Under the pieces are notes generated by a model, which did not search any database, had not been told where the DNA came from, and saw only the letters and a list, made by a program, of their open reading frames with translations. The position numbers and the translations under genes were made by a program. Below are positions 12,194 to 57,741 of a stretch of DNA of 58,197 bases, piece after piece (within the stretch, counting starts at the first letter, position 1; every line of letters begins with the position of its first letter). Source of the DNA: Patescibacteria group bacterium (GTDB taxonomy: Bacteria; Patescibacteriota; Patescibacteriia; UBA1558; GWA2-36-10); the NCBI GenBank assembly GCA_041665545.1, contig JBAYIQ010000005.1, forward strand, positions 1 to 58,197, written 5' to 3'.

Positions 12194-12382
12194 ATAAAAA
12201 TTATTTTACTTTTTGTTGTCGCACTGTCAAACTACGCCGAATTATAAAATTCGAGGGGGTGCGGTAAGCAGGCCGTCCTTTTCTATTGCCAACTTTATGG
12301 TGCTGTTTCATGTTATAATTATAGCACATCATTGAATAATGACTCTATTACAGTAGCCAAGCGGGTTAATGAGATAGTGGCA

Positions 12383-12411
12383 TTGACTTTATGTAATATA
12401 TATTGTAAAAT
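12383..12411 (+). promoter_or_regulatory. Sigma70-type promoter of the tRNA cluster
   Basis: TTGACT (12383-12388), 17 nt, TAAAAT (12406-12411). Confidence 0.65.
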
Positions 12412-12428
12412 CATCTGTGTTTAATTGA

Positions 12429-12482
12429 GCCGAAGTGGCCCGCCCGGCGCGCCAATGGCGCACCTTTGGCGGATGAGTAGCT
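12429..12482 (+). ncRNA. Leader module: copy of tRNA-Leu nt 1-11 plus a GC-rich nested hairpin
   Basis: GCCGAAGTGGC (12429-12439) is identical to 12543-12553. It is followed by CCGCC-CG-GCGCC-AAT-GGCGC-ACCTTT-GGCGG. Confidence 0.6.
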
Positions 12483-12542
12483 TGTTTCAATCAACTTTGG
12501 TTTAATTAAAAAAGCACGCTTAGAATTTATAATTTACTTTAA

Positions 12543-12629
12543 GCCGAAGTGGCGGAACTGGCAGACGCGCTGGACTCAAAATCCAGTGACCGCAAGGTCG
12601 TGGAGGTTCAAGTCCTCTCTTCGGTACCA
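12543..12629 (+). tRNA. tRNA-Leu(CAA), class II, CCA encoded
   Basis: Cloverleaf folded by hand. Acceptor GCCGAAG/CTTCGGT, anticodon loop CTCAAAA, long variable arm, T-loop TTCAAGT. Confidence 0.9.
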
Positions 12630-12784
12630 CTCGATTCGCCTTTTGCTTCGCAAAAGTCTCACTCGCGGTCTACGGTGCTTATCGCACCTCCGACCATTTC
12701 ACAATAAATAATCGAGTGCCCTGCCATTCGGCCCTGAGGGGCCTCAGGCCCTGAACGGGAGCGAACGAAGTGAGTCGAAGGGCA
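12630..12784 (+). ncRNA. Conserved structured RNA directly 3' of CCA, copy 1
   Basis: Long-range stem CACTCGATT / AATCGAGTG that includes C75-A76 of the tRNA. Hairpin CTTTTGC-TTC-GCAAAAG. Hairpin GGTC..GGTGC-TTATC-GCACC..GACC. A further GC-rich hairpin has a GAGCGAACGAAGTGAGTCGA core. Confidence 0.6.
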
Positions 12785-12796
12785 TAAACAATTTCA

Positions 12797-12843
12797 GGGC
12801 CGTTAGCTCAGTTTCGCCCACAGGGCGACCACCCAGTGGGTGG
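12797..12843 (+). ncRNA. Leader module: copy of tRNA-Ala nt 1-17 plus two GC hairpins
   Basis: GGGCCGTTAGCTCAGTT (12797-12813) is identical to 12895-12911. It is followed by TCGCCC-ACA-GGGCGA and CCACCC-AGT-GGGTGG. Confidence 0.6.
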
Positions 12844-12894
12844 GGCTAGTCATGTTGATTTGCTCATTAAAGTTTTTACAAAAAATTATTCTTT

Positions 12895-12971
12895 GGGCCG
12901 TTAGCTCAGTTGGCTAGAGCGCTTCCATGGCATGGAAGAGGTCGCAGGTTCGACCCCTGTACGGTCCACCA
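12895..12971 (+). tRNA. tRNA-Ala(GGC), CCA encoded
   Basis: 77-nt hand-folded cloverleaf with the G3:U70 identity pair and anticodon loop ATGGCAT. Confidence 0.9.
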
Positions 12972-13061
12972 TAAACCATTCGCTACGCTCAGGTTTATGG
13001 CACTGCCATTTTATTTAGGGCAGCGCCGTGAACTTGAGGAGCGTAAGCGACGAATAGTTCA

Positions 13062-13138
13062 CGGGGTGTGGCGCAGTTGGCTAGCGCGCACGCATGGGGT
13101 GCGTGAGGCCGGAGGTTCAAGTCCTCTCACCCCGACCA
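13062..13138 (+). tRNA. tRNA-Pro(GGG), CCA encoded
   Basis: 77 nt. Acceptor CGGGGTG/CACCCCG, anticodon loop ATGGGGT with G37. Confidence 0.9.
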
Positions 13139-13155
13139 ATTTATAAATTAATCGG

Positions 13156-13233
13156 GGCAGGGTAGCTCAGTTTGGTTAGAGCGTGGGACTCATAAGCCCG
13201 AGGTCGTGGGTTCGATCCCCACCCCTGCTACCA
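13156..13233 (+). tRNA. tRNA with CAU anticodon (elongator Met or Ile2; not resolvable by eye)
   Basis: 78 nt. Acceptor GGCAGGG/CCCTGCT, anticodon loop CTCATAA. Positions 31:39 are an A-G mismatch. Confidence 0.8.
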
Positions 13234-13342
13234 CTCGATTCGCCTTTTGCTCCGCAAAAGTCTCACTCGTGGTCTCCGGTGCTTATCGCACCTCCGACCA
13301 TTCTCCATATCATGAATCGAGTGTTCCGAGCGAAGTCGAGGG
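13234..13342 (+). ncRNA. Conserved structured RNA directly 3' of CCA, copy 2
   Basis: Near-identical to copy 1 across the core (CTCGATTCGCCTTTTGCTCCGCAAAAGTCTCACTCGTGGTCTCCGGTGCTTATCGCACCTCCGACCATT...GAATCGAGTG), plus a GAGCGAAGTCGA hairpin. Confidence 0.6.
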
Positions 13343-13406
13343 ACATGAGATAAAGAGAAGCGCATCGAGGGACACGAGAAATCACCATTCTCCAAAAAAA
13401 AACGGT

Positions 13407-13652
13407 ATGAAAAAATTTTTCTTTTATTTTGCCCGATGTAACGATAATACCCTTTATGCTGGTTACACAAATAATATAAAAAATAGAGAAATAAAACACA
13501 ACGACGGTAAGGGCGCAAAATACACTAAATGTAGATTACCAATAAAAATAATATACTGGGAGAAATTTGATACCAGGATTGAAGCCATGAAACGGGAAGC
13601 ACAAGTAAAACGTTGGAGTAAAATAAAAAAAGAAAAATTAATAAAAAATTAA
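13407..13652 (+). CDS. Mini GIY-YIG nuclease-family protein (81 aa)
   Basis: MKKFFFYFARCNDNTLYAGYTNNIKNREIKHN... has GIY-YIG-type motifs (LYAGYT, R..H, and a Glu in REAQVKRWS). I trimmed the track ORF 13206..13652 to the Met after the tRNA and its trailer. Confidence 0.7.
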   Translation: MKKFFFYFARCNDNTLYAGYTNNIKNREIKHNDGKGAKYTKCRLPIKIIYWEKFDTRIEAMKREAQVKRWSKIKKEKLIKN

Positions 13653-13722
13653 ATTTTTTACGACGCGGGGTAGCCCGCCCGGCACGCCTACGGCGAAGCC
13701 GTGGCGGACGGGAGCAGTACCA
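13653..13722 (+). ncRNA. Leader module: 21-nt copy of the tRNA-fMet 5' flank plus nt 1-10, then a GC-rich nested hairpin
   Basis: ATTTTTTACGACGCGGGGTAG (13653-13673) is identical to 13987-14007. The following CCCGCCCGGCACGCCTACGGCGAAGCCGTGGCGGA aligns with the Leu module. Confidence 0.6.
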
Positions 13723-13736
13723 CACTGAATATGCAT

Positions 13737-13985
13737 ATGAAAATATTACTTTTTTATACTTATGTCCTAAAAAGTAAAAAAGATAACAAATTGTATGTTG
13801 GATATACCGATAATCTAAACAAAAGAATCCAAAAACATAATGATGGAAAAGTTGAATCAACAAAAAATAGAAGACCATTTACATTATTATATTTTGAAGC
13901 TTGCCTAGATAAGTATAAAGCAATAAAAAGAGAAAAATATTTTAAAACGGGCTTTGGTAGGAGATTTTTAAAAAGTAGGATATAA
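13737..13985 (+). CDS. Mini GIY-YIG nuclease-family protein (82 aa), paralogue
   Basis: MKILLFYTYVLKSKKDNKLYVGYTDNLNKRIQKHN... with GIY-YIG-type motifs. It lies entirely between the 21-bp direct repeats that flank the tRNA-fMet 5' end. Confidence 0.7.
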   Translation: MKILLFYTYVLKSKKDNKLYVGYTDNLNKRIQKHNDGKVESTKNRRPFTLLYFEACLDKYKAIKREKYFKTGFGRRFLKSRI

Positions 13986-13997
13986 TATTTTTTACGA

Positions 13998-14073
13998 CGC
14001 GGGGTAGAGCAGTTGGCAGCTCGCCAGGCCCATAACCTGGAGGTCGCCGGTTCGAGTCCGGCCCCCGCTACCA
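13998..14073 (+). tRNA. Initiator tRNA-fMet(CAU), CCA encoded
   Basis: 76 nt. C1xU72 mismatch and an A11:U24 pair (initiator hallmarks). Anticodon loop is CCCATAA, so position 33 is C rather than U. Confidence 0.85.
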
Positions 14074-14117
14074 ATTTATACAATCCGAGGTAGCTCAGTG
14101 GTAGAGCAGTTGGCTGT

Positions 14118-14703
14118 ACATTTACATCGTGTATGTGGTATACTTATTGATGTATGCCAGATACAAGAAAATATGTCGATCGTGCTGAGTATTTAAAACA
14201 AGCAGTTGCTAAACGTCGTAAAGATGTGAAAATAATGCTTGTAAAATATAAGGGCGGTAAGTGTAAGACTTGTGGCTATAAAAAATCCGTAGAAGCTCTT
14301 GAGTTCCATCATATAAATGAAAGAAAAAAGAAGTTTGGAATTTCTGGGCAAGGATTAACTAGATCTTGGAAAAGTGTAAAGCAGGAAGCTGATAAATGCA
14401 TCTTGCTTTGCGCAAATTGCCACAGGGAATTGCACGCAAAATAGTGCAGCTTCCTCAAGTAATTGAGGTTGACAAACGGGGTGAACTGTCCCGCAAAACG
14501 GGAGCCCGCCAAAGGCGGTGCCGGGAAGCCTAAGTCTAAAAGATATGGTAATCCGCAGCCAAGCCCTGAACCAGATGGTTCAGGGAAGGTTCAGAGACTA
14601 TCCGAAAGGAGTAGGCAGTATTTACTAGCCGAAGCGCCCCGCATCCTAAAAAATTATAGGATGATGATATAGTCCATCCCTTTAGGAAACTTAAGGATCG
14701 ATG
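14118..14703 (+). mobile_element. Group I intron carrying an HNH ORF
   Basis: The 5' exon ends in U and the intron ends in G. Core strings CCGCAGCCAAGCCC (14553-14566), GTTCAGAGACTA (14589-14600) and GATATAGTCC (14666-14675) match the conserved catalytic-core blocks of Tetrahymena/Azoarcus-type introns as I remember them. I did not confidently identify P1 or the internal guide sequence by eye, so boundaries are accurate to within a few nt. Confidence 0.75.
14154..14444 (+). CDS. HNH homing-endonuclease-like protein (96 aa), intron-encoded
   Basis: CKTCGY...LEFHHINE...LLCANCHRELH is an HNH motif with two CxxC pairs. The ORF lies wholly inside the intron. Confidence 0.8.
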   Translation: MPDTRKYVDRAEYLKQAVAKRRKDVKIMLVKYKGGKCKTCGYKKSVEALEFHHINERKKKFGISGQGLTRSWKSVKQEADKCILLCANCHRELHAK

Positions 14704-14747
14704 TAACCAATTGGTCGTGGGTTCAAATCCCTCCCTCGGAGCCATTA

Positions 14748-14778: not shown

Positions 14779-14907
14779 AATCTTGGCAACACCTCCTTTT
14801 AGTCGGAAAAATTATTTATTCATTCCAAATTTTATGCCGAAGCCAAATAAAAAACCATCCTGAGTGTAAGTCGAAGGATGATTTTTTATTTTTAGTCGAT
14901 AAGTAAT

Positions 14908-47561: not shown

Positions 47562-47587
47562 CAAACAAAAAACAACCCGACGGGTTG
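47562..47587 (-). terminator. Terminator of the tRNA-Ser unit
   Basis: The minus strand reads CAACC-CGTCG-GGTTG followed by TTTTTTGTTTG. Confidence 0.55.
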
Positions 47588-47597
47588 AAAGTATGAC

Positions 47598-47718
47598 ATG
47601 TCTCTCGACTCGCTACGCTCGCTCAAGACACTCGATTCATGATACGAAAATGGTCGTAGGTGCTGAAAAGCACCGGAGACCACGAGTGAGTTTTTTGCTA
47701 AGCAAAAAACGAATCGAG
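47598..47718 (-). ncRNA. Conserved structured RNA directly 3' of CCA, copy 3
   Basis: The minus strand reads CTCGATTCGTTTTTTGCTTAGCAAAAAACTCACTCGTGGTCTCCGGTGCTTTTCAGCACCTACGACCATT...GAATCGAGTG, plus a GAGCGAGCGTAGCGAGTCGA hairpin. It shows compensatory changes relative to copies 1 and 2. Confidence 0.6.
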
Positions 47719-47808
47719 TGGCGGAGAGGACAGGATTTGAACCTGCGAGGGATTTTACTCCCTACTCGCTTTCCAAGCGAGCGCACTAGACCACTATGCG
47801 ACCTCTCC
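47719..47808 (-). tRNA. tRNA-Ser(GGA), class II, CCA encoded
   Basis: 90-nt hand-folded cloverleaf. Acceptor GGAGAGG/CCTCTCC, anticodon loop TTGGAAA and a long variable arm. Confidence 0.9.
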
Positions 47809-47826
47809 ATATTATAAATATTATTT

Positions 47827-47880
47827 ACGCTTTTCCCGCCCGCCCCGCAGCGCGGGGCAAGCGGGATATGCGACCTCTCC
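47827..47880 (-). ncRNA. Leader module: copy of tRNA-Ser nt 1-14 plus a GC-rich nested hairpin
   Basis: GGAGAGGTCGCATA (complement of 47867-47880) is identical to the tRNA 5' end (47795-47808). It is followed by CCCGC-TT-GCCCCGC-GCT-GCGGGGC-G-GGCGGG. Confidence 0.6.
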
Positions 47881-48265: not shown

Positions 48266-48402
48266 ACCCCGTTAAATAATTTTTATCGGGTCCAGCTCGA
48301 TAAAAATTAAATTTAATTAATAATAATTAAAAAATTGAATTGTTATAATTATTTTTTTGGTTTATTTTTATGCCCCAATAAATTAAATTTATTTAACGGG
48401 GT
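48266..48402. repeat. Related inverted-repeat intergenic element, copy D (longer and diverged)
   Basis: Arms ACCCCGTTAAATAA (48266-48279) and TTATTTAACGGGGT (48389-48402). It fills the cca-mscL spacer from the cca stop codon to 5 nt before the mscL ATG. Confidence 0.6.
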
Positions 48403-49970
48403 TAATCTGTTAATAATAACTTTTCTAATTTACCCATGGCCTCTGTAACGTCTTTTATGCCAGATAATACTTGAATAATATCTTCCTGACTAAAACCACG
48501 ATTATCTCTCAATTCTCTACTCAAATATATCAAGCGCCCAATCTCTGGACCAGGGGCAAAGCCCATTTGCAAAAAATCTCTACCCCACATTATCTCTGGC
48601 GCCACTTGTCGATCAACGCCAATACTTTCAGCTTTAGCTATCAACCACTCAACTAATTCTTTTATCTTTTCCTTATCTTCTCTTCGAGTAGCTCGATAGT
48701 CAGCTTCTGACAAAAAAGCTGACTCTCTGATACTAGACGGCGCCAAATCTCTAGCCAAACGACGAAAAACACCATCTTTTATTTCACGATTTTGCAACAT
48801 GTCATTATACAAATACATCGGTCTCATGTGATGACGCACCAAAGGCAAAACTCGTGCTTCTGTGGCCCCATCTACCCTGATGCTGTCTAAAAAAACTTTA
48901 GTCAAACCAACGCTGGCCAAATCGTGACCGTGAGCAATTATTTTTCCGTCTTTTTCCTCGGTTGTTTTTGCTTTACCCAAATCATGACACAGAGTAGCCA
49001 GCATCAAAGGCCATATTTCCTGATCAGTTAATTTCTCTCGCCTAGCAATGTCCATCATTTCATCAACCGCCAACAAAGTATGCTCCCAGACATTACCTTC
49101 CGGATGAATTTTGGGGTCTTGTGGCGTTTCCTGCAAAGCTAAAAATTCTGGATGCAACTCTTTAAAAACGCCTAGCTCCACACCGGCTTGCAAACCCCTT
49201 GATGGTTTATCGGATTTTAACAAAAGCTTACGCCATTCTTCATAAATTCTCTCCTCTGATAAATGTTTTAAACTATCAGCCATGCTGCTCATCACTCGAC
49301 GACTATCCTCATCCATAGTCAAATCAAAGCGACCAATCATTTGCATGGCTCGCAATACTCTAACTGGATCTTCGGAAAATGTTTTTTCGTCGACAATCCG
49401 CAAAGTTTTATTTTTTAAATCATCTATTCCGTGATATGGATCAAATACTTGTCCAGTCAATGGATCAGCTAAAATAGCGTTGATGGTAAAATCACGACGC
49501 CGTGTTGCCTCGGATATTGACATATAAGGATCAGACTGTGCGGAAATGCCCCTTCCACGCTTTGATTCAGTTTTTGAATCGCGACGCGGTAATGACACAT
49601 CAATCTCAAAGCCGTCTTTGATAGAAAGTTTAAGAACGCTAAAGGCTTTTCCCACTTCCCCTAAACGACCAAAAGGTCGTAATAAACCTTCCAATTTATC
49701 TGCTTCTAAACCATAGACTTCAATATCAAAATCTTTTGATTCTACATCGAGCAATATATCTCGCACACTACCGCCAACCAGCAAAGCGCGTCCGCCAGCT
49801 TCCTGAACGGCCCGACAGATTCTTGTCACAGCTTCGTAAGTTTCGGCCTGTTTTTCCAAACCCCTTTCCTGCCATTCAGCAATATAGTTTTCAGGCAAAG
49901 CCAAACTGACAGCCGTGTCATCCACTTCCTTGGTTGGAATAATTTTTTCTGGTGTTTCTGAATTTGGCAT
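48402..49970 (-). CDS. cca: CCA-adding tRNA nucleotidyltransferase with an HD domain
   Basis: 522 aa with LLVGGSVRDILL...DFDIEV (the nucleotidyltransferase motif) and an HD region (LCHDLGK). Confidence 0.8.
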   Translation of the reverse strand: MPNSETPEKIIPTKEVDDTAVSLALPENYIAEWQERGLEKQAETYEAVTRICRAVQEAGGRALLVGGSVRDILLDVESKDFDIEVYGLEADKLEGLLRPFGRLGEVGKAFSVLKLSIKDGFEIDVSLPRRDSKTESKRGRGISAQSDPYMSISEATRRRDFTINAILADPLTGQVFDPYHGIDDLKNKTLRIVDEKTFSEDPVRVLRAMQMIGRFDLTMDEDSRRVMSSMADSLKHLSEERIYEEWRKLLLKSDKPSRGLQAGVELGVFKELHPEFLALQETPQDPKIHPEGNVWEHTLLAVDEMMDIARREKLTDQEIWPLMLATLCHDLGKAKTTEEKDGKIIAHGHDLASVGLTKVFLDSIRVDGATEARVLPLVRHHMRPMYLYNDMLQNREIKDGVFRRLARDLAPSSIRESAFLSEADYRATRREDKEKIKELVEWLIAKAESIGVDRQVAPEIMWGRDFLQMGFAPGPEIGRLIYLSRELRDNRGFSQEDIIQVLSGIKDVTEAMGKLEKLLLTD

Positions 49971-57612: not shown

Positions 57613-57667
57613 GAAGGTCGCGCCAGCGACCTGAGCGTAGGCGAGCTAAGCTCGCCGAAGTCGAAGG
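57613..57667. repeat. REP-like double hairpin with a GAGCGTAG...GAAGTCGAAGG core
   Basis: GGTCGC-GCCA-GCGACC (57616-57631) and GGCGAGC-TAA-GCTCGCC (57640-57656). It is immediately followed by TTGACA (57668-57673). Confidence 0.75.
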
Positions 57668-57741
57668 TTGACAAAAACCAAGTAAAATGATTTCATTTCA
57701 ACTATAGTGAACAAAACCACATACCATTTGGGAGGTGAAAC

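Follow-up and report, generated by a model that had tools for sequence, protein, structure and literature searches.

What is the sequence of about 90 nucleotides that begins exactly where the mature RNA ends at three tRNA genes of one bacterium? The DNA in question, hereafter referred to as the window, is a 58,197-nucleotide stretch from a Patescibacteria group bacterium (GenBank assembly GCA_041665545.1, contig JBAYIQ010000005.1), in which ARAGORN identifies six tRNA genes, three of them carrying the sequence directly on their 3′ side. A previous inspection of the letters alone (the sequence-only reading) had described a three-way-junction RNA that might either process or protect the tRNA 3′ trailer or belong to an element that targets tRNA 3′ ends. 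The analysis presented here shows that it is a site-specific insertion whose fold is conserved and whose cargo is a nuclease gene, and we regard it as a previously undescribed small mobile insertion of Patescibacteria (bacteria of the candidate phyla radiation, CPR). Targeting of tRNA 3′ ends is strongly supported by insertion polymorphism, by the similarity of copies within one genome and by the GIY-YIG gene present in about half of them; a processing or protection role at the RNA level is plausible for the same mobile element. Three features had escaped the sequence-only reading: transfer-messenger RNA (tmRNA) is a major host, the start lies after the discriminator in genes that lack an encoded CCA, and a second hairpin (Hp2) is part of the unit.

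The element, its boundary and its host RNAs

The first base of the element is the base after A76 of tRNA-Leu (position 12630, + strand), tRNA-Met (13234, +) and tRNA-Ser (47718, −), and ARAGORN and the sequence agree on this placement directly after CCA. A 14-mer, CTCACTCGYGGTCT, occurs exactly three times in the window, solely at these sites, and GAATCGAGTG and its complement are confined there to the two ends of each copy. The unit consists, in order, of a closing stem (P1) whose last two pairs are formed with C-A of the host RNA, hairpin A, an unpaired junction, hairpin B, the second strand of P1, which has UG at its 3′ end, and Hp2. Its parts in the window are as follows.

12543–12629 (+): host tRNA-Leu(CAA) with encoded CCA, whose C75-A76 (12628–12629) pair with TG at 12717–12718 (ARAGORN; Rfam tRNA, 55 bits; fold)
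12630–12718 (+): core of copy 1, a three-way junction (sequence, fold), with the P1 5′ strand at 12630–12638, hairpin A at 12639–12656, junction CTCACTCG at 12658–12665, hairpin B at 12667–12695, an AU-rich linker, and the P1 3′ strand TAATCGAGTG at 12709–12718
12719–12784 (+): Hp2 of copy 1, with CA after it; outer stem CCCT at 12719–12722 with AGGG at 12779–12782, core GAGCGAACGAAGTGAGTCGA at 12759–12778
12970–13063 (+): miniature variant 3′ of tRNA-Ala (sequence, inverted-repeat scan), with a closing hairpin CA+TAAACC / GGTTTA+TG at 12970–12999 that has a CGCTC motif in its loop, an abutting hairpin at 13000–13026, and an Hp2-like hairpin (GAGGAGCGTAAGCGACGA core) at 13027–13063 that runs into tRNA-Pro
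13156–13233 (+): host tRNA-Met(CAT) with encoded CCA (ARAGORN, Rfam)
13234–13323 (+): core of copy 2, with the P1 5′ strand at 13234–13242, junction CTCACTCG at 13262–13269 and the P1 3′ strand GAATCGAGTG at 13314–13323
13324–13345 (+): Hp2 of copy 2, short form, TTCC-GAGCGAAGTCGA-GGGA, then CA
13346–13406 (+): tail of copy 2 and leader of the following open reading frame (ORF) (sequence)
13407–13652 (+): GIY-YIG cargo gene, 81 amino acids, single domain, UPF0213 type (PF01541, E 6e-17)
47719–47808 (−): host tRNA-Ser(GGA) with encoded CCA (ARAGORN, Rfam)
47629–47718 (−): core of copy 3, with the P1 5′ strand at 47718–47710, the junction at 47690–47683 and the P1 3′ strand at 47638–47629
47599–47628 (−): Hp2 of copy 3, long form, TCTT-GAGCGA-GCGTAGC-GAGTCGA-GAGA, then CA
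47567–47587 (−): intrinsic terminator of the tRNA-Ser unit (CAACCCGTCGGGTTG and a T run), pre-existing (sequence, empty alleles)

Rfam 15 holds no family that overlaps the element, either at gathering thresholds over the whole window or at E ≤ 10 with lax filters over positions 12350–14200. The group I intron model RF00028 has its sole match at 14473–14696, in a different tRNA gene, and the element (90–130 nt) lies outside the mature tRNA. In a full-text search of the literature on self-cleaving RNAs of CPR tRNAs, on GIY-YIG homing in tRNA and tmRNA genes and on UPF0213/YhbQ, we found no description of it.

Homologues were collected by two scans. An exact-pattern scan of one genome per GTDB species yielded 53 loci, all in Patescibacteria/CPR assemblies of several classes and groups (Paceibacteria/Parcubacteria, Komeilibacteria, Kerfeldbacteria, Kaiserbacteria, Yanofskybacteria, Falkowbacteria, Colwellbacteria and others). 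Metagenome contigs, searched with both flanks left free in the pattern, yielded 111 loci. After removal of duplicates and about 7 chance matches, about 110 distinct copies remained, in CPR assemblies or unlabelled metagenome contigs. A few bins carry other labels, and at least one of these, CAZILH, is clearly CPR, with an 80%-identical orthologue of a Patescibacteria-annotated window protein. A phage origin was considered and dropped, a scan of viral contigs having given 0 matches.

The position of the copies follows a simple rule: CA stands before the element and TG after the closing stem in nearly every one. All strict copies (56/56) have CCA directly upstream. Among the flank-free metagenome set, CCA precedes 56/66 and GCA 3/66, and TG follows the closing stem in 58/66; the exceptions to these flanks are mostly chance matches in coding sequence. 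For 64 of 117 copies, the boundary coincides with a tRNA or tmRNA end called by ARAGORN, and the hosts comprise tRNAs of 14 amino-acid types and tmRNA (13 by ARAGORN and about 20 more by eye). Copies without a call are mostly accounted for by visible tmRNA 3′ ends, by tRNA 3′ fragments with GC-rich insertions in the T-loop and by contig edges. The proposed linkage to tRNA 3′ ends has thus been borne out by copies that lie nearly always at tRNA-like 3′ ends, and insertion is limited to such ends rather than occurring at every CCA.

The placement directly after the CCA end needs amendment for CCA-less genes. In tmRNA, tRNA-Ala and tRNA-Tyr genes of genomes without encoded CCA, the apparent CCA is C71-C72-A73, so that the element starts after the discriminator and follows C72-A73 instead of C75-A76; the three GCA cases have the same discriminator-type start. 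The element always starts at a legitimate 3′ processing site, which is either the mature end or the end that receives CCA from the CCA-adding enzyme. An enzyme of this kind is probably encoded in the window by an ORF of 522 amino acids (48402–49970, −) two genes from the tRNA-Ser locus, whose positional orthologues in loci L167 and L168 have PolyA_pol, PolyA_pol_RNAbd and, weakly, HD domains.

Some loci depart from the usual picture in smaller ways. At L058, L079, L086, L120, L141, L148 and L072/L087/L108 the upstream sequence ends in CCA and neither ARAGORN nor Rfam recognises a tRNA or tmRNA; several of these hosts have (A/G)GTTC(T/C)AAC about 20 nt upstream. In L014, L017, L019, L024, L044 and L048, 1–5 extra bases after the UG complement the discriminator and acceptor 3′ strand of the host itself, as in UGGUGCC, complementary to GGCACCA. 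The miniature arrangement found between tRNA-Ala and tRNA-Pro in the window recurs in L028; L001 has a plain 26-nt spacer there.

Insertion, mobility and the nuclease gene

Orthologous tRNA-Ser loci in three relatives lack the element, which identifies it as an insertion. The neighbouring ferric-reductase gene has orthologues at 85, 80, 69 and 68% identity. In the empty tRNA-Ser(GGA) loci of L167 and L168, CCA is followed by TTTAAAATTT (or TTCAAATTT) and leads straight into the terminator; in L166 (the CAZILH assembly), a tRNA 3′ fragment has TTTAAAATTTCAACCCGACGGGTTG after CCA. The terminator comes directly after CCA and TTTAAAATTT in L166 and L167, and the pattern of the three empty alleles is CCA, TT(T/C)AAA(A)TTT, terminator. 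The filled allele of the window reads CCA, element, Hp2 and CATGTCATAC, then TTTCAACCCGTCGGGTTG and the same terminator. Thus, about 135 bp have been inserted right after CCA, and 7 nt of the old trailer have been replaced. Because the terminator lies downstream of the inserted element, the latter is co-transcribed with tRNA-Ser in the sense orientation.

Other loci show the same kind of polymorphism. The tRNA-Leu(CAA) site is empty in L001 and filled in the window and in L028. L022 and L023 have an orthologous tRNA-Asp and share the downstream flank TCAAACAAATTAGA, and carry two element variants with the stems CATTCGAC and CACTCGATTC; the shared flank places the right boundary a few bases after Hp2. 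Near-identical copies occur on unrelated tRNAs of one genome, namely copies 1 and 2 of the window and those on three contigs of Komeilibacteria S5_K13. The element measures about 115–160 bp without and about 450–600 bp with cargo.

These results bear on the idea that the sequence is a host-beneficial, vertically inherited and immobile tRNA 3′ trailer, with the GIY-YIG genes as independent neighbours. Wide conservation across CPR classes, the constant location at a processing site and co-transcription with the tRNA would all suit such a trailer. It would not be expected, however, to be absent from orthologous tRNA-Ser loci whose flanking protein is 68–80% identical, to occupy only some tRNAs of a genome and different ones in related genomes, to appear in near-identical form on unrelated tRNAs, to exist as two variants at one site, or to be followed by a GIY-YIG ORF in about half of its copies. 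We consider this explanation very improbable; the limited data point instead toward repeated independent acquisitions.

Even less weight can be given to a remnant attachment site of an integrase-dependent island. tRNA and tmRNA 3′ ends are the classic integration sites of tyrosine-integrase islands and prophages, which share with the element both the hosts and the end that is used, and other insertions in these loci carry duplicated tRNA parts. The element, in contrast, has neither an integrase ORF near any copy nor a flanking duplicate of the tRNA 3′ segment: at least 5 nt of the tRNA end are repeated in only 2/56 copies (5–7 nt). It measures 0.1–0.6 kb instead of kilobases and is inserted exactly at the processing site. 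Membership of the IS200/IS605 type is likewise unsupported: no ORF for a Y1 transposase or TnpB was found beside the copies, the loci not having been searched for a transposase acting in trans. Repeats of the tRNA 3′ end after Hp2 are seen in L017 (GACCA) and L044 (GGCACCA).

Of the three window copies, only copy 2 is followed by a GIY-YIG ORF, as had been read from the letters. To survey such genes we built a jackhmmer profile from the two GIY-YIG proteins of the window and searched 1.15 Mb of loci with it. Among the 95 GIY-YIG ORFs obtained, 80 adjoin a v1 element or a tRNA/tmRNA gene: 52–53 are located just downstream of a copy and 27 more adjoin a tRNA/tmRNA gene, some of these 27 following v1 copies that had been dropped as duplicates. 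Counted by copy, a same-strand GIY-YIG ORF is found downstream of 52/110, with enough downstream DNA available for 97 and too little for 13. The nearest solved structures to the 81-residue protein are 1ywl and 1zg2, both UPF0213 proteins, and its close homologues are overwhelmingly from Patescibacteria; on a Gracilibacteria contig, the same Hp2 hairpin stands upstream of a GIY-YIG gene. Between Hp2 of copy 2 and the start codon of its GIY-YIG gene, a direct repeat, GAGGGACAYGAGA, is present at 13338–13350 and 13368–13380 (+), the first repeat overlapping the 3′ end of Hp2; a CATGAGA tail 3′ of Hp2 is seen again in many loci.

A GIY-YIG domain within the element and presence or absence at the same site in relatives are both features of homing cassettes. 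The nearest evolutionary analogues are free-standing GIY-YIG genes such as those of the Seg type in phage T4, and the group I introns found in tRNA genes of Patescibacteria (PMC13011429), which, like the element, are selfish, reside in or beside essential RNA genes, show presence/absence polymorphism, and exist with an endonuclease ORF and in ORF-less forms. Removal of the additional sequence from the host RNA makes them harmless, as we presume for the element as well. Unlike them, the element is located beyond the end of the mature RNA, involves no splicing, carries a single-domain UPF0213 nuclease, and has an RNA module that belongs to no known ribozyme.

Fold and covariation

The three-way junction predicted from the letters is identical to the minimum-free-energy fold of each of the three window copies (−29, −35 and −38 kcal/mol). 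The z scores against dinucleotide shuffles are −5.8, −6.6 and −9.0, and none of 200 shuffles was as stable. The compensatory changes noted in hairpin A of the Ser copy are there (CC..GT to TT..AA), hairpin B has 6 bp in that copy and 5 bp otherwise, and a second hairpin with a GAGCG..AGTCGA core follows every window copy. The closing stem, in which C75-A76 of the tRNA were thought to take part, is backed by covariation as described below, but copy 1 has one mismatch in it (TAATCGAGTG).

To evaluate covariation, we aligned 27 copies of the window subtype and counted pairs on a manual structure (P1 with CA:UG, hairpin A, the basal and distal parts of hairpin B, and the Hp2 outer stem, G:C and C:G core and inner hairpin), since RNAalifold, applied to a MAFFT alignment, mis-drew hairpin A as a result of gap placement. 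Standard pairs occupied 93.2% of the cells, as compared with 34–43% when the partners were slid by 1–3 columns. Changes on both sides were found in 17 of 35 pairs, and 0/500 shuffles equalled the alignment in pairing, in covariation score or in the count of compensated cells. No copy departs from CUCACUC in the unpaired junction, which reads CGCUC in variant families. Covariation, including that of P1 across variant families described next, supports all the helices, and support for pairing persists now that independent homologous copies have been gathered.

P1 is invariant in the aligned set because the search patterns fixed it, and a separate test was therefore made. Of 169 distinct tRNA/tmRNA genes in the collected loci, 79 have an 8-nt inverted repeat without mismatch whose first bases are the CA of the 3′ end, as compared with 12 of 845 control arms. 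Besides CACTCGAT, the closing stems included CATTCGAC, CATAAACC, CATGAACC, CACATTTT and CAGTCTTC, at least seven unrelated sequences in all, and each alternative stem ends in TG and is followed at once by another hairpin. Since multiple unrelated stems keep the CA:UG pairs, the closing stem covaries across variant families.

Hp2 abuts the UG with zero linker in 75 of 84 copies, which shows that it belongs to the unit. Its consensus is YCCY-GAGCG...(A)GUCGA-RGGR. The core has tandem G.A pairs, and G:C and C:G pairs with a bulged U; it ends in a GNA triloop or in a further G.A tandem with a small hairpin. The G:C pair is replaced with A:U in L047, and the inner hairpin alternates between AC..GU and GC..GC among copies. 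The first pair of the outer stem is CG in 9 copies, UG in 10, UA in 8 and CA in 0, and all four outer pairs together give 15 U.G against 0 C.A. A pattern of U.G without C.A is the classical signature of a single strand, and, the element being transcribed in the sense orientation, we assume that the fold acts in the sense strand, most simply as RNA. Over all defined helices there are 25 G.U against 15 A.C, the latter mostly in hairpin A, where the alignment is uncertain.

Several further observations concern Hp2-like sequences. Hp2 of copy 1 is broken by a 36-nt GC-rich insertion (12723–12758); this sequence, GCCATTCGGCCCTGAGGGGCCTCAGGCCCTGAACGG, lies between the outer stem and the GAGCG core in the window and in L025, a longer and related insert occupies the same position in L075, and the insert appears to be a further small mobile hairpin. 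Hp2 is nested within the Hp2 loop, up to three deep, in L004, L015, L030, L032, L036 and L044, the inner copy of L044 being flanked by the 5-nt direct repeat CGAAG. Solitary hairpins of the form stem-GAGYG...GTCGA-stem, with no tRNA 3′ end near, are located at 14858–14878 (+), where a T run follows and gives a terminator-like appearance, and at 57629–57668 (+), where the inner hairpin GCGAGC-TAA-GCTCGC resembles hairpin A of L006 and L019.

How the insertion may be made harmless, and what it means

We put at about one half the probability that the element is a mobile selfish cassette whose RNA module makes its insertion harmless, through a cleavage that we infer at the tRNA/element boundary. 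It would be a cassette of the homing-endonuclease type, with ORF-less derivatives, and its niche would be the sole spot beside an essential RNA gene where RNA processing can remove an insert. The tRNA promoter would transcribe the element as a 3′ trailer; in the 5′ module, hairpin A, P1, the CA:UG pairs and Hp2 would stack as a quasi-continuous helix over the boundary, where a host endoribonuclease would cleave. A strong trailer fold directly after the CCA of single-copy tRNAs or tmRNA would block 3′ exonucleolytic trimming, so that a −35 kcal/mol trailer in this position would require an endonucleolytic cut at the boundary. The cut should leave a 3′-OH, because aminoacylation and CCA addition need one; RNase III, RNase P and RNase Z leave a 3′-OH and small self-cleaving ribozymes do not. 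The released tRNA or tmRNA would be ready for aminoacylation or, in the A73 cases, for CCA addition, and the nuclease mRNA would keep the structured element at its 5′ end. The GIY-YIG nuclease would be responsible for spread as DNA.

As the boundary nuclease we prefer, tentatively and in the knowledge that another enzyme may well be responsible, a double-strand-specific enzyme of the RNase III type, which would cut between A76 and C+1 and between UG and Y, the latter being where P1 meets Hp2. These two positions are offset by exactly 2 nt on opposite strands, which is the cut geometry of RNase III-type enzymes. The helix at the boundary would comprise 9–11 bp of P1, the 2 bp of CA:UG and about 8 stacked pairs of Hp2, with one strand discontinuous. 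Like the RNase III stems that flank rRNAs or lie downstream of metY in E. coli, it would be a long quasi-continuous helix over a mature end; unlike them, it would consist of hairpins stacked on one another, the strands changing over 2 bp from the proposed cut, and we know of no RNase III site that defines a tRNA CCA end. A bolder formulation, for which the odds are clearly adverse, is that of an "outside intron": a new RNA module (a new ribozyme or a guide structure for a host RNase) that directs its own exact removal, with UPF0213 proteins as mobility enzymes. The possibility that the RNA module is categorically new is a real one.

Some observations weigh against the proposal of a selfish cassette neutralised at the RNA level. 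On the tRNA side of the proposed cut, only 2 bp from the scissile bond, the Hp2 3′ strand gives way to the tRNA strand, and a substrate of this shape would be unusual for RNase III. The length of P1 differs among variants (6–11 bp). Where the start follows A73, C72 is claimed both by P1 (C72:G) and by the acceptor stem (G1:C72), so that the two pairs compete. The UPF0213 proteins have a single domain and no DNA-binding domain, and to our knowledge no member of the family has been shown to be a homing enzyme. For copy 2, an alternative fold is predicted in which the tRNA CC and the P1 5′ strand pair with the 3′ half of Hp2, and CACUCG of the junction with CGAGUG; it was rejected as the main structure, the Hp2 hairpin being favoured by the covariation of its pairs 105:128 and 106:127, and it may be a transient state. 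Comparison of sense and antisense folding energies shows no sense advantage, the antisense strand being slightly more stable. With this lack of preference, and with 25 G.U against 15 A.C, a role as single-stranded DNA or cruciform is compatible with the data. Mini-hairpins of the GCGAAGC/GCGTAGC type, present in the Hp2 core, have exceptional stability as DNA. Read as its reverse complement, Hp2 resembles a left end of the element in miniature (CCCTTCGACTTCGCTCAGGG, as compared with CCA followed by TTCGACTTCG..CGCTCATGG), in the manner of transposon terminal repeats.

The last points lead to a serious rival, a purely DNA-level palindromic element of the miniature inverted-repeat transposable element (MITE) kind, with P1 and Hp2 as terminal or subterminal repeats. 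Its cruciforms or single-stranded hairpins would be the target of a nuclease that recognises DNA structure, for which the GIY-YIG protein is a candidate; the fold of the RNA would arise incidentally, and maturation of the tRNA by the usual host enzymes would proceed irrespective of the downstream sequence. MITEs, repetitive extragenic palindromic (REP) sequences and bacterial interspersed mosaic elements (BIMEs), Correia elements, mitochondrial GC clusters and double-hairpin elements are likewise short, hairpin-rich, multi-copy, self-nesting and often ORF-less. An 11-nt motif (approximately) occurs three times, as CACTCGATTCG, inversely as CGAATCGAGTG, and as CGAAGTCGAG inside Hp2; a CTCGAYTTCG motif recurs in direct and inverted form; and the likeness of the Hp2 reverse complement to a miniature left end, the Hp2 nesting in six loci with the CGAAG repeat in one of them, and the solitary Hp2-like hairpins of the window are all in keeping with a DNA palindrome. 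So are folds computed with DNA parameters, which are significant on both strands (z −4.3 to −5.5).

P1 itself, a perfect 10–11-bp inverted repeat, resembles a terminal repeat, yet the stems covary like structural helices. Their free covariation around an invariant unpaired junction argues for a folded single strand rather than for transposase-binding repeats. At least seven unrelated P1 sequences retain the CA:UG rule, and the first Hp2 pair passes via U.G and never via C.A. Target-site duplication was looked for and is absent from the empty/filled comparison at tRNA-Ser, and the CA after Hp2, which had suggested a duplication of 2 nt, is present in only 47 of 84 copies, the A73-start copies having CT there. 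The targeting of both A76 and A73 processing sites would be hard to explain from DNA sequence alone. The element further differs from small palindromic repeats in standing strictly at the tRNA/tmRNA 3′ boundary and in one orientation. These results make the DNA-level explanation unlikely, although it deserves more weight than the other rivals, and we place the element with those selfish cassettes that carry an endonuclease and are made harmless as RNA.

Could the element cut its own 5′ edge, as a new self-cleaving ribozyme? Theta ribozymes, minimal ribozymes of the hepatitis delta virus (HDV) type beside the tRNAs of Caudoviricetes phages from the gut (Kienbeck et al. 2024, PMC10879173), are its nearest functional analogue: both are compact RNAs that start from a tRNA 3′ end, are co-transcribed with the tRNA and are proposed to free its 3′ end. 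A CPR counterpart would accommodate the invariant unpaired CUCACUC and GAGCG/AGUCGA (tandem G.A) beside covarying helices, which are typical of catalytic cores, the complementarity of the junction to the Hp2 loop (CGCUC/GAGCG in variants; GAGUG in about five v1 copies), and the absence of the family from Rfam. In-line attack would be disfavoured, however, by the location of the scissile bond within uninterrupted pairing (A76:U, C+1:G); a 2′,3′-cyclic phosphate on A76 or A73 would block aminoacylation or CCA addition unless repaired; and the miniature variants retain just P1 and the abutting hairpin. Models of hatchet, HDV, hammerhead, twister and pistol ribozymes gave no match at E ≤ 10, and a hammerhead core (CUGANGA...GAAA type) is absent from the element sequence. 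Whereas theta ribozymes have a nested double-pseudoknot HDV fold and demonstrated self-cleavage (PMC10879173), the element has a three-way junction with an abutting hairpin, and its cleavage is conjectural. The element also pairs with the last two tRNA bases, whereas HDV ribozymes need the upstream sequence to be unpaired with the first P1 nucleotide, and it is found in CPR chromosomes and on no viral contig, as an insertion with a nuclease gene. We judge a ribozyme to be quite improbable.

A tRNA-like mimic cut by RNase P, of the mascRNA/MALAT1 type, shares with the attachment-site idea the lowest probability that we assign. RNase P would leave the needed 3′-OH on the upstream fragment; the element, however, has no tRNA-like score at E ≤ 10 and no T-loop, and its helices, which have the wrong lengths, do not make a 12-bp acceptor/T stack, and this candidate was rejected.

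The host loci carry other insertions in tRNA genes. In the tRNA-Asn(GUU) gene of the window (14086–14744, +), which ARAGORN does not call, a group I intron (RF00028, 81 bits, 14473–14696) with an HNH ORF (14154–14444, PF01844) interrupts the sequence after anticodon position 35. Introns at tRNA-Asn 35/36 that carry HNH genes have been reported from Patescibacteria (PMC13011429), and this one agrees with them. Upstream of the intact tRNA-Leu, tRNA-Ala, tRNA-Met2 and tRNA-Ser genes stands a second version of their first 10–20 nt (12429–12542, 12797–12894 and 13654–13997; 47809–47880 on the minus strand), with a GC-rich (double) hairpin of about 40–50 nt and AT-rich DNA after it in each case. These look like D-arm insertions that carry a replacement 5′ part. 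In the tRNA-Met2 case, 20-nt direct repeats (13654–13673 and 13988–14007) enclose a second GIY-YIG ORF (13731–13985). An insert beginning with TCGCCCACAGGGCGAC is found in tRNA-Pro of L028 rather than in tRNA-Ala, which indicates that it is mobile.

Fragments of tRNA 3′ ends, or acceptor-T-arm "minihelices", with GC-rich hairpin insertions in the T-loop are seen in L001 (about 2400–2500), upstream of the element in L014, L035, L036, L043 and L070, and in L040 (2396–2577), the 3′ part being sometimes duplicated downstream of the intact gene; these 3′ duplications mirror the 5′ duplications of the window. A GC-rich hairpin upstream of tRNA-Leu (12450–12489, +) has a weak, sub-threshold match to the ssNA-helicase RNA motif (RF03070, 17 bits, E 5.6), which is probably due to chance, and LOOT RNA (RF03000) is matched several kilobases from the element in the metagenome loci L141 (10029–10140, +, 75 bits) and L086 (8163–8277, −, 68 bits).

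Through the element and the neighbouring insertions, many tmRNA and tRNA genes in these metagenome-assembled genomes are missed or mis-ended in annotation. The GIY-YIG family UPF0213, whose structures but not function are known, is now tied to a concrete candidate role, and an unannotated, widespread and covariation-supported RNA/DNA structure of Patescibacteria represents a new RNA family. Since these bacteria have minimal RNA-processing machinery, the element bears on how the 3′ ends of their tRNAs and tmRNA mature. If our proposal is true, selfish DNA would have, beside introns and inteins, a third strategy, that of occupying an RNA processing site and supplying the structure that restores it.

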